7,164 bases of DNA. It comes from a virus. Taxonomy: Duplodnaviria; Heunggongvirae; Uroviricota; Caudoviricetes. Each line of letters opens with the position of its first letter. Position 1 is the first letter of the stretch. Both the position numbers and the translations under genes were made by a program. The notes below the pieces were generated by a model, which worked only from the letters and a program-made list of their open reading frames with translations, was not told the DNA's origin and did not search any database. Positions 2,927-7,164 of the stretch are shown piece by piece. The stretch is from IMG/VR virus record IMGVR_UViG_2778261085_000001. The stretch is one strand, 5' to 3'.

Positions 2927-3085
2927 GAAGGAAACAAACAGAAACAACAATTGCCGTTATCTGTTGCCACCAATGACAAGTAAACGTATCACAGGCGAGC
3001 GCATTGCGCCGTTCTGACGCGCATAAGGTAGATCAGATTTCAGGAGCTGGCAATAAAAAGTTGGTGGAAAGTCTGATGCAGATGT

Positions 3086-3112
3086 GAAAAGACAGCCCCG
3101 AAAACGGGGCCG
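3086..3112 (-). terminator. Intrinsic terminator for the minus-strand 96-aa gene
   Basis: GCCCCG (3095-3100) pairs with CGGGGC (3105-3110) across an AAAA loop. On the minus-strand RNA the hairpin is followed by UGUCUUUUCA. It lies about 8 nt after the stop codon at 3119-3121. Confidence 0.7.
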
Positions 3113-4926: not shown

Positions 4927-5298
4927 ATGCGTATAGAGTTTGTTTTGCCTTACCCGCCGACGGTAAACACCTACTGGCGACGTCGTGGCAGCACATATTT
5001 TGTATCAAAAGCCGGTGAGCGTTATCGCCGTGATGTGGCGCTCATTGTTCGCCAGCAGCGGCTGAAATTAAATCTGTCCGGAAGGCTGGCAATAAAAATT
5101 ACTGCAGAGCCACCGGATAAGCGCCGTCGTGACCTGGACAATATTCTGAAAGCACCACTGGATGCACTGACACATGCGGGGTTGCTTATCGACGACGAGC
5201 AGTTTGATGAAATTAATATTGTGCGCGGTCAGCGCGTACCTGGTGGTCGGCTGGGTGTGAAGATTTACGAAATTACAGGTGGTAACGATGGCGCGTGA
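4927..5298 (+). CDS. rusA: Crossover junction endodeoxyribonuclease RusA (Holliday junction resolvase), 123 aa
   Basis: ATG at 4927 has an AAGAGG SD. The protein shows clear similarity to E. coli RusA as I remember it, including the acidic catalytic block DKRRRDLDNILKAPLDALTHAGLLIDDEQF, with the conserved RRRDLDN and LDD elements. It sits just upstream of Q, as in lambdoid prophages. Confidence 0.85.
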   Translation: MRIEFVLPYPPTVNTYWRRRGSTYFVSKAGERYRRDVALIVRQQRLKLNLSGRLAIKITAEPPDKRRRDLDNILKAPLDALTHAGLLIDDEQFDEINIVRGQRVPGGRLGVKIYEITGGNDGA

Positions 5299-5668
5299 TA
5301 TTCAGATGGTTCTTGAGCGTTGGGGGGCATGGGCGGCTAGTGATAGCTCGGGTGTGGACTATTCACCTATAGCTGCCGGGTTTAAGGGACTTCTGCCCTA
5401 TACCAGTAAGAAACGCCTGGCTTGTTCAGATAGTGACGCATTAATTATTGAAGGTTGTCTTGCTTGTTTAAAGCAAAAAAGGCCTTATGAGCATTCGCTT
5501 CTTGTGGCACATTATTTATACAGGATATCCAAGCGCAAGATTGCAAAGGCGCGTTGGAAGGATGAGAAATTGATACGTATAGAGATACAGATGGCTGAAG
5601 GGTTTATCGACGGTTGCCTGAGTATGTTGGATGTAAGTTTAGAAATGGATGCCGAAGTGGAATCTTGA
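5288..5668 (+). CDS. Late-gene antitermination protein Q (Q-family of the E. coli cryptic-prophage type), 126 aa
   Basis: ATG at 5288 has an AGGTGG SD at 5277-5282, and the start overlaps the rusA stop by 11 nt. The N-terminus MARDIQMVLERWGAWAA and the motifs IAAGFKGL and MAEGFIDGCLSMLDVSLEMD closely resemble the prophage Q antiterminators (quuD-like) I recall. The track's GTG at 5279 is probably three codons too early. Confidence 0.8.
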   Translation: MARDIQMVLERWGAWAASDSSGVDYSPIAAGFKGLLPYTSKKRLACSDSDALIIEGCLACLKQKRPYEHSLLVAHYLYRISKRKIAKARWKDEKLIRIEIQMAEGFIDGCLSMLDVSLEMDAEVES

Positions 5669-5676
5669 AACCAGAC

Positions 5677-5694
5677 AGCCCGATTACTCGGGCT
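5677..5694. terminator. GC-rich hairpin between convergent Q and the minus-strand moron; candidate bidirectional terminator
   Basis: AGCCCGA (5677-5683) pairs with TCGGGCT (5688-5694) across a 4-nt loop, giving a 7-bp stem. The minus-gene stop codon (plus TTA at 5684-5686) lies in the loop. Flanking runs are only moderately T-rich, so efficiency is uncertain. Confidence 0.4.
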
Positions 5695-6694
5695 TATCTT
5701 CAACATCTTTCACATGTAAAATTACGGCGGACTTGATATCTCCATCAATGTGTTTGGCATTGATGCTTAAATGCACAGGCTTTCTTTCCCATTCAGCTCG
5801 CTGTAAGGCTTCTTTGTTCCCTGATTCATCAAGGAATATATCCTGAACAACGCAGGTCAAACGTTGATCAGAATCGACCTTTCGAACCTTAACTTTGAAG
5901 CTTTCGGGGTCGGTATTATTCACTTCTTCGATACGGTATATACCGTCTATTCTCATTTCAACTGAGCGCCGACGAGCATTTGTTACTAGCTCTTTTGCCG
6001 TTTCTGAATCTATTGTGACACCGTCAATTTCTGCTGAATCTGAACGCACGAAAGATTTAACCATGGTGGTTTTAGCGTCATAAGACATTCGATCCATATT
6101 GTCGAGTAGAGGTTTTTTAGCCACCATTTCTGAGATGATTTGGAGGCGTTTTGTTTCCTCCTGTGTCATCACTTGCATTGCGCGTAGGTGTTCTTTGTCG
6201 CCTTCTTTAGCAATTTCAGCCAACCGAGTATCTTTACGGTTATCCAGATAGCGTTTGAAGACGGTTACACCGCCCCATATAACGGCAGCACCGAGAACCG
6301 TAAATACAATCTCTGTGGCGTTCATTTTCCCTACCAGTTCGTGCGTAAGCTTGCTTAGGAAGCCATCAATGTTAATCTCTACAAGAGATGAACCTTGCTC
6401 TACTGTAACTTCAATTTCTAAAGCATCAAGTTCTTCTTTTGTTAGCCTGCGGACATCAGGAGTTCCGAACTTTGCTAGCGCATAAGACTTATTGAGTTGC
6501 GATTGCATTTCAACAAATCCTTTCATAACTGAAGGTGTGAGTGATTTGTTGAATTTTTCACCAGTCAACCTGATGGTTAGACTTGGCCAACCATTGAAAC
6601 TAATTTTTTCGGGTAAAGCTTGTCCGTTTAGGTAACGTTCAAGTAATTCAAAAGCTTGCTGTTCAGACTCAACGTCGTAATGTATTTCGTACAA
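5684..6694 (-). CDS. AT-rich moron: hypothetical protein with a central transmembrane helix (336 aa); function unknown, candidate phage-exclusion protein
   Basis: A long minus-strand ORF with a TTG start at 6692-6694. There is an in-frame stop five codons upstream and no ATG or GTG between, so TTG is the only possible start for the full-length ORF; a GAGGG SD lies 6 nt upstream. One clear hydrophobic segment (ATEIVFTVLGAAVIWGGVTVF) sits between two soluble charged domains. G+C in four 60-nt lines I counted by hand is 38-47 percent, against about 58 percent in two lines of the DUF968-like gene. It is not a porin: no signal peptide and no C-terminal Phe. Confidence 0.65.
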   Translation of the reverse strand: MYEIHYDVESEQQAFELLERYLNGQALPEKISFNGWPSLTIRLTGEKFNKSLTPSVMKGFVEMQSQLNKSYALAKFGTPDVRRLTKEELDALEIEVTVEQGSSLVEINIDGFLSKLTHELVGKMNATEIVFTVLGAAVIWGGVTVFKRYLDNRKDTRLAEIAKEGDKEHLRAMQVMTQEETKRLQIISEMVAKKPLLDNMDRMSYDAKTTMVKSFVRSDSAEIDGVTIDSETAKELVTNARRRSVEMRIDGIYRIEEVNNTDPESFKVKVRKVDSDQRLTCVVQDIFLDESGNKEALQRAEWERKPVHLSINAKHIDGDIKSAVILHVKDVEDKPE

Positions 6695-6730
6695 AGAAGT
6701 TCCCTCATTCTAAGACCTGTGTTAACTCAG

Positions 6731-6743
6731 CCAGCCTGGCTGG
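6731..6743. promoter_or_regulatory. Inverted repeat CCAGCC-t-GGCTGG in the leader/promoter region of the minus-strand moron; candidate operator
   Basis: Perfect 6-bp arms with a 1-nt spacer, about 40 bp upstream of the moron start codon. The spacer is too short for an RNA hairpin, so a dimeric protein-binding site is the more natural reading. Confidence 0.3.
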
Positions 6744-6866
6744 AATTGATTTCTTATTTTTACTGTACGTAGGAAAAATAAAGCAAAACTTGCTAAAAAT
6801 CACTAACGCGGTCCGCATTTTTTCGCTTAGTGTGTTAAGAGTGGTTACTTCGCTACACAGCTTAAG

Positions 6867-6888
6867 CTCGCCGTTAGGCGGGTTTTTT
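6867..6888 (+). terminator. Candidate intrinsic terminator or attenuator on the plus strand, upstream of the ORF starting at 7012
   Basis: Stem CTCGCC (6867-6872) pairs with GGCGGG (6877-6882), including one G-U pair, across a GTTA loop, followed by TTTTTT (6883-6888). A weaker hairpin plus T6 lies at 6808-6823. No plus-strand gene precedes it in the intergenic region, which fits a leader terminator of the lambda tR' type. Confidence 0.4.
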
Positions 6889-7011
6889 GTGCCCGAAAAG
6901 TGGTGCAGTACGTTAAACGCGCTGGTGGTTACGAATACCGGTTTTTCAGCTTGCTGGCTTTTCAGACAAGAGTTATTGGTATGTCACGTTAACCGGAATA
7001 GGGAAAAAGAC

Positions 7012-7164
7012 ATGCTAAAACAGCAGGATATGACCAAAACCGCCAGAGTGGTGTTTAATGAATTAAGCGTCACCGAACCGGCGACCGTCGGGGAAATTGC
7101 GCAGAATACTTACCTTTCACGCGAACGCTGCCAGTTAATACTGACCCAGCTTGTTATGGCGGGT
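7012..7164 (+). CDS. 5' end of a hypothetical protein, possibly a winged-helix DNA-binding protein (3'-truncated by the window edge)
   Basis: ATG at 7012 (alternative in-frame ATG at 7030 with a CAGGA SD) is open to the end of the window: MLKQQDMTKTARVVFNELSVTEPATVGEIAQNTYLSRERCQLILTQLVMAG. Only 51 codons are visible, which is why it is absent from the track. It is not hydrophobic, so it is not a holin. Confidence 0.45.
   Translation, partial: MLKQQDMTKTARVVFNELSVTEPATVGEIAQNTYLSRERCQLILTQLVMAG

Follow-up and report, generated by a model that had tools for sequence, protein, structure and literature searches.

In the pR'/qut/tR' system of phage lambda (6S RNA) the leader terminator ends transcripts unless promoter-bound antiterminator Q joins the paused RNA polymerase. 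The locus considered here belongs to a DNA stretch of 7,164 nucleotides (further referred to as the window) from a virus of Caudoviricetes (IMG/VR record IMGVR_UViG_2778261085_000001), in which a Q gene at positions 5288-5668 of the plus strand is followed by an accessory, or cargo, gene ("moron") of the opposite orientation. The first-pass annotation of this DNA, made from its letters alone, had found no recognisable late promoter after Q and supposed that the promoter is either non-canonical or overlaps the moron's control region, or that, with the insertion, Q became uncoupled from its target and the prophage is defective in late expression. According to the comparative data given below, the window quite probably has a late cassette that depends on Q, is intact and belongs to the 933W/DLP12 type, being displaced by 1.17 kb from Q by the reverse-oriented accessory gene. 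The late promoter is not missing, its layout is common and already known, and among loci of this kind the window is nothing out of the ordinary.

The leader-terminator logic would be common for lambda and the window (PMC9388147), whereas the components differ: monomeric Q of lambda, from the unrelated family PF03589, binds an asymmetric site (PMC9388147), its promoter is close to consensus (position-weight score 14.6), and tR' lies ~194 nt downstream. The protein encoded in the window (126 amino acids, "antiterminator Q family protein" in RefSeq) matches Pfam family PF06530 (Phage_antitermQ) over its full length with E = 4.2e-50 and shares 45.6% identity with Q of 933W (tblastn) and 75% with that of Stx2_EH1846. 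Phage 21 (OL657228; Yin et al. 2019) has Q of the same Pfam family, a DNA site embedded in the promoter and a terminator ending at ~+50 (annotated at +3 to +50, while in the window it occupies +25 to +49). Its Q-binding element is, however, a direct repeat of 8-bp subsites ATTGAGCA and AATGAGCA at -27 to -12, between a consensus -35 TTGACA and the -10, while the window has a palindrome at -32 to -24 and no -35. Q21 is, moreover, only a remote relative: in a sequence search against solved structures its structures 6p18 and 6jnx gave a marginal match (E = 0.04) and were the only ones found.

Base-for-base alignment was obtained between positions 6795-6888 of the window and the late-promoter cassette found in phage 933W and in the Sakai prophage Sp5, where pR' serves the leader RNA StxS and Q belongs to the same Pfam family. 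Both cassettes contain an A-tract, a palindrome centred at about -28, a -10 element at -12 to -7, TGnTAAG joined to AGTGGTTAC across the start, and a hairpin with T-run at about +27 to +49; the 933W record annotates pR' (TTTACG, 16 bp, TATCAT), qut and a terminator in the same register. The start of pR' in Sp5 has been mapped by differential RNA sequencing (Sy et al., PMC7547250); in the same paper the 3' end seen by Term-seq at tR' is 258 nt from this start, and RNase E cleaves GU|AUU at +173 (PMC7547250). The published Sakai coordinate of the start (1,266,203) did not match the RefSeq record, which is a later version with shifted coordinates, and the internal distances of the paper were used instead. 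On the Sp5 sequence both of them place +1 at the bracketed A of AAG[A]GTGG, or possibly at the next base, and all elements of the window were numbered by alignment transfer from this point. Three differences are evident. The 933W box TTTACGATCGTAAA supplies the -35-like TTTACG, while the box of the window, GCGGTCCGC, does not; the 933W cassette lies directly after Q (18 bp from the stop codon to the core motif), while in the window 1.17 kb of cargo is in between; and the mapped leader of 933W extends for 258 nt to a second terminator (PMC7547250), while the window lacks the StxS region. It was also seen that in 933W and Sp5 a hairpin followed by T7 occupies +27 to +49 (L006 1986-2008 and L087 672-695, respectively), matching the terminator position of the window. 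Since the published leader runs through it to the second terminator, this first hairpin must be leaky there, or its short product escaped detection. In the insertion-free phages PhiR5_1 and Stx2_EH1846 and in locus L047 an element-for-element match to 6795-6888 starts within a few bases of the stop codon of Q.

In the window this cassette begins with an A-tract at 6795-6799 (-45 to -41), which, judging from the published consensus, could be UP-element-like. It is followed by the candidate Q-binding element CGCGGTCCGCA at 6807-6817 (-33 to -23) with the palindrome GCGGTCCGC inside it (6808-6816, -32 to -24, centre at -28). No -35 element is present, and positions -35 to -30 read AACGCG. The -10 hexamer TAGTGT (6828-6833, -12 to -7) aligns with TATCAT of 933W and Sp5, and the alignment with Sp5 puts the presumable start at A6840. 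The invariant core TGTTAAGAGTGGTTAC (6833-6848, -7 to +9) spans this start, is common to all classes of boxes and is a candidate region of pausing or Q loading. Between the start and the late genes lies an intrinsic terminator, hairpin and T6, at 6864-6888 (+25 to +49). Both the box CGCGGTCCGCA and the core have a single exact match in the window, at 6807 and 6833, respectively, with 0.04 matches expected for the core by chance. A further hairpin at the 5' end of the leader (+2 to +5 with +14 to +17) was considered and discarded: it pairs in 85% of cells with one compensatory change, and shuffles reach this value in 171 cases of 500. The core is better treated as a DNA element than as an RNA structure. 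Searching 5600-7164 against Rfam with E <= 1 revealed no known leader RNA family.

The absence of a convincing sigma70 pair on the plus strand, noted in the first-pass annotation, was upheld by a consensus scan, which found no plus-strand promoter-like site in 5200-7164, and by a position-weight scan of 6650-7011, where the best plus-strand scores were 6.2-6.4 (on the same scale the late promoters of 933W and lambda score 10.4 and 14.6). As promoter finders both approaches fail here, with the homology-placed candidate ranking only 61 of 335. The supposition that the late promoter is non-canonical or overlaps the moron's control region is supported, as homology with 933W and Sp5 puts a -35-less promoter at 6795-6840. 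The terminator-like structure described at 6867-6888 is also real: it consists of the stem 6867-6872/6877-6882 with the loop GTTA and T6 at 6883-6888, widens to 6864-6885 upon folding of 6840-6895 (-20.8 kcal/mol for the 56-nt leader, z = -2.8 versus shuffles), and was not listed by a simple terminator scan. The weak structure described at 6808-6823 exists as well and is made of the palindrome GCGGTCCGC and the following T-run; as a conserved terminator it was rejected, many relatives having an A-run in place of the T-run. The statement that these two structures are the first plus-strand ones after Q has a caveat: a loose scan adds weak terminator-like hairpins at 6170-6190 and 6727-6743. One more weak plus-strand hairpin with three G-U pairs and a subsequent T5 was noticed at 6921-6946, in the stretch that separates the leader terminator from the first late open reading frame (ORF); it is probably not a conserved terminator, because its T-run is interrupted in Stx2_EH1846 and phiP27.

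Comparative material consisted of 80 viral contigs encoding close relatives of Q and 120 loci with the core motif; the sample was seeded by similarity to the window and by this motif, so that the frequencies of adjacent and cargo-filled intervals given below are not population estimates. The core TGTTAAGAGTGGTTAC is conserved across 88 distinct cassettes, and TAnnnT is kept at -12 to -7 in 83 of them, represented by 17 different hexamers with varying inner bases, which is the pattern that would be expected of a working -10 element. A leader hairpin, accepted if it had a folding energy <= -6 kcal/mol, was followed by a T-run and lay within +15 to +110, was found in 94 of 105 distinct leaders, and the sequences of the stems are highly varied. 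In the window's Q clade (53 distinct cassettes) the A-tract is conserved as aaAAAtca and the -35-less design is the norm, as it also is in the clade with box GCGTACGC (19 distinct cassettes), positions -35 to -30 being AACGCG or similar. Compared with those positions of its clade that reach at least 90% consensus, the window has only one departure, T for C at +15, and the same change is found in other lineages.

The palindrome always occupies -32 to -24 (with the centre at -27.5 or -28) and is followed by an A- or T-run, while its sequence follows the clade of Q. Box GCGGTCCGC, invariant in both position and sequence, accompanies Q proteins that are at least 74% identical to that of the window; GCGTACGC goes with Q of ~50% identity to it; TTTACGATCGTAAA, TTTACAATCGTAAA or TTTACGTACGTAAA are found in the 933W clade, including DLP12; GGAATTCC in the phiP27 clade; and TGTTATAACA in a clade 59% identical to Q of phiP27. 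The C-terminal helix-loop-helix region of Q, containing a predicted recognition helix, changes in step with the box, being EKxIRIEIQMAEGF for GCGGTCCGC, DGTIRKELQTAxGF for GCGTACGC, DTCIGKRLHKAEG for TTTACGATCGTAAA and HTQILKRLQKAEGF for GGAATTCC. In 114 of 130 distinct intervals the pairing of box and Q holds over 0.5-3 kb of variable cargo, and identical leaders (+1 to +50) occur behind different boxes; recombination, therefore, separates the box from the leader. All this makes the box a good candidate for the Q recognition site. A closer look at the boxes GCGGTCCGC and GCGTACGC (6807-6817 of the window versus, for instance, L088 and L113) reveals common GCG/CGC half-sites with spacing different by 1 bp; the right half-site is fixed at -26 to -23, and the corresponding Q clades differ as IRIEIQ versus IRKELQ. 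Literature searches yielded no direct description of a defined binding element of Q933W, which is not proof that none exists, and the paper on how diverse the pR' region is in Shiga toxin (Stx) phages (PMC6266700) contains no definition of the cassette elements.

Separation of the cassette from Q is not a peculiarity of the window. Of 130 distinct intervals from Q to the cassette, 16 leave the two adjacent (<100 bp) and 114 contain 0.5-3 kb of cargo, while lengths of 100-500 bp do not occur. The interval from the Q stop codon to the Q box (5669-6806 in the window and its counterparts in L008-L206) appears as a cargo hotspot with 48 protein families, 158 of 172 ORFs in it (92%) being encoded on the minus strand. 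Prophage DLP12 of E. coli K-12 provides a familiar example with the same order of rusA, Q, minus-strand cargo, cassette and late genes: rusA, ylcG and quuD (plus strand) are followed by nmpC (minus strand, interrupted by IS5), by GTTTACGTACGTAAAAAATTGGTTATGCTGTTAAG joined to AGTGGTTAC with a terminator, and then by essD. It differs in that the cargo is the porin gene nmpC, the box (TTTACGTACGTAAA) is of the 933W class and the late operon opens directly with a holin gene. The lysis operon of DLP12 has been reported to be under control of a Q-type antiterminator (PMC7918800). Its cassette, which shares core and leader with that of the window, was located upstream of essD at L208 2690-2780 (NC_000913.3 ~577,189-577,279) with -10 TATGCT and a predicted start at 577,229; as a leader terminator comes after it, a short (~50-nt) leader RNA is predicted in K-12. 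Further occupied slots are those of phiP27 (GIY-YIG gene) and of phage cdtI (orf53 and orf54).

Based on these data one can assume the following course of events. Q would be made from the early rightward transcript (5288-5668) and diffuse to the box GCGGTCCGC (6808-6816) of the late promoter, composed of the A-tract, TAGTGT and start A6840 with no usable -35. Transcripts initiated without Q would stop at the hairpin and T6 (6864-6888, +25 to +49), whereas Q loaded on the early elongation complex in or just after the core TGTTAAGAGTGGTTAC would allow read-through into the late operon from 7012.

Several observations do not favour this scheme. The start site has been transferred from the 933W class, which has the recognisable -35 TTTACG that the clade of the window lacks, and the homology-placed -10 (TAGTGT, 6828-6833) has, at its rank of 61 of 335, a position-weight score of only -0.3. 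Neither a conserved TAnnnT nor a clear -10-like pause element is found downstream of +1, and TAAG in the core (-4 to -1), resembling the pause element TAAGCTG of phage 21 at +2 to +8, lies 6 nt further upstream. Transfer of the Q21 mechanism is unsafe in detail, because the Q21 element is a direct repeat rather than a palindrome (PMC9388147). Co-variation of Q and box may partly reflect co-inheritance, as cargo families mostly segregate with the type of box. The low score, together with the lack of any consensus-like site in 6650-7011, could mean that the cargo insertion uncoupled Q, and that the -35-less cassette with its weak -10 is a decayed remnant unable to switch on the late genes, the more so as another element with an integrase lies behind the head genes in the host genome and the prophage may not be fully intact. 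Such decay is, nevertheless, very unlikely: the -35-less design is the norm in 53 cassettes of this clade and 19 with box GCGTACGC, the box, TAnnnT and core are conserved, and decay would not keep one pattern over 48 cargo families. The window itself has one complete cassette (6807-6888), departing from the consensus only at +15, and late genes follow it. Cargo between Q and cassette is the majority state and is found in DLP12 as well. Q acts on DNA, at a site within the promoter, and no mechanistic role is known for how far the Q gene lies from it, which leaves the uncoupling suggested in the first-pass annotation unsupported.

There is hardly any probability that the true late promoter and Q site are located directly after Q, near the hairpin 5677-5694, so that late transcription crosses the cargo gene in the antisense direction. 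A late promoter adjoining Q is indeed the arrangement of lambda, 21, 82 and 933W. However, motif searches of the window found neither the Q box nor the cassette core at 5677-5694 or anywhere in 5669-5760, both of them occurring only at 6807 and 6833; no plus-strand promoter-like site is present there, and cargo-free relatives carry the counterpart of 6795-6888 right after Q. A different objection concerns the role of the box, which may be an operator of another regulator (for instance, one serving the divergent promoter of the cargo gene) or no more than a -35 region of variable sequence, with Q reading the core or nascent RNA. It is in line with this that the box overlaps the -35 position, that boxes of the 933W and phiP27 classes hold the -35-like TTTACG or TTGCGG, that Q21 uses a direct repeat and that a candidate cargo -35 lies 4 bp away. 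Such a role is, however, distinctly unlikely, as the box tracks the clade of Q and not the cargo, at least 10 cargo families as well as cargo-free loci carrying the box GCGGTCCGC. The core cannot encode the specificity of Q, because one and the same core is found in Q clades that differ in their recognition-helix regions, and the hairpin at the 5' end of the leader has no support from co-variation. An intact cassette with the box as the candidate Q site is the reading we prefer.

For the clades with boxes GCGGTCCGC and GCGTACGC this reading can be extended, though the extension is rather unlikely to hold: Q may bind as a symmetric dimer and replace the contact of sigma region 4 with the -35 element, being required for both initiation and antitermination, and bound Q may also modulate or shut off the cargo gene at the lytic switch. 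Replacement of this contact is conceivable because there is no -35 element, the palindromic box is located at the -35 position and upstream part of the spacer, and the relative Q21 has a fold similar to sigma region 4; the candidate -35 of the cargo promoter is only 4 bp from the Q box. If true, this site architecture and dual role would be undescribed for Q of lambda with its asymmetric monomer site or for Q21 with its direct repeat and constitutive promoter.

What looked like a defect is thus an ordinary and probably working late switch, and the annotation of its promoter, start and terminator can be fixed. Consensus and position-weight searches miss an entire class of late promoters in lambdoid phages, while the 16-base core TGTTAAGAGTGGTTAC combined with the palindrome of the clade finds them reliably. 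Co-variation of box and Q leads to testable predictions of Q specificity for at least five clades of the Q933W family, some of which control Shiga toxin phages; a mutant design for the box GCGGTCCGC is given by GCAATTCGC. The interval between Q and box is a compact and easily delimited slot with its 48 families, several of which are known or candidate defence systems, and offers a practical hunting ground for new ones, the 336-amino-acid protein of the window being among those to look at. The by-products of this analysis are a putative class of -35-less late promoters, palindromic boxes that may predict specificity, and a cargo slot with Q at one end and the candidate site of Q at the other.

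The cargo gene (5684-6694, minus strand) encodes 336 amino acids and has a TTG start preceded by GAGGG. Its family (330-344 amino acids) is found across Enterobacterales. No model of Pfam, NCBIfam or PADLOC matches this protein, so homology to a defence family was not found among them, and a fold search returned only a generic oligonucleotide/oligosaccharide-binding (OB) fold domain with no relative of the whole protein. Other cargos in the slot strongly match the PADLOC defence models PDC-S20/KAP NTPase, PDC-S42, PDC-M68A/HNH and TIR-TM, while one more has a Pfam NYN nuclease domain and only marginal PADLOC matches. By its location only, the gene suggests expression in the lysogen for defence or exclusion. 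Literature searches yielded no direct description of a defence hotspot between Q and the late promoter, which again does not prove that none exists. A homologue with 58% identity was seen in Salmonella enterica prophages (L210-L213 4001-4999) directly 3' of a CI-type repressor gene and co-oriented with it, at the position where rexAB sits in lambda. Since it adjoins the repressor gene, the family occupies two different accessory-gene slots of prophages.

The cargo gene is probably transcribed from a promoter of its own near 6775-6803, which would keep it out of the late operon. The candidate -10 TATTTT (6780-6775, minus strand) together with GTGATT (6803-6798) has the best minus-strand position-weight score (8.2), with a start expected near 6768, and AAAATA, complementary to this -10, is nearly invariant in the alignment of 10 loci. 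The presumed late start is ~72 bp from the likeliest cargo start, on the opposite strand, the two promoters standing back to back. The palindrome CCAGCCTGGCTGG (6731-6743), which lies in the 5' leader of the cargo gene, was considered as an operator and rejected: it is present, but locus-specific, and 9 further loci with this cargo family do not conserve it. In the first-pass annotation it was the operator-like repeat of a shared region that could tie moron expression to the lytic switch. Between the convergent Q and cargo genes there is a hairpin at 5677-5694, terminator-like on the minus strand (7 pairs, 5 of them G-C), which is probably the terminator of the cargo gene.

A prophage adjoining ompW in E. 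coli PapRG-04-4 is 99.9% identical to the window. The order of genes is DUF968, RusA, Q (5288-5668, plus strand), the 336-amino-acid ORF (5684-6694, minus strand) and an ORF for a 65-amino-acid "TrmB family" protein from 7012 (plus strand), which is the first in the late operon and is cut by the window end at 7164. At the DNA level this last ORF is 92% identical to L23 of phiP27 and ~90% identical to its counterparts in Stx2 phages. In the host genome it is followed by genes for a DNA methyltransferase and a tRNA and, on the same strand, by the late genes for holins, endolysin, terminase, portal and capsid. [quoted passage not shown] At the other side, RefSeq annotates hokD, a toxin gene of the Hok/Gef family, at 2949-3104 of the window (plus strand; L207 17750-17905), which is within the nin region and has DUF968 and RusA downstream of it.

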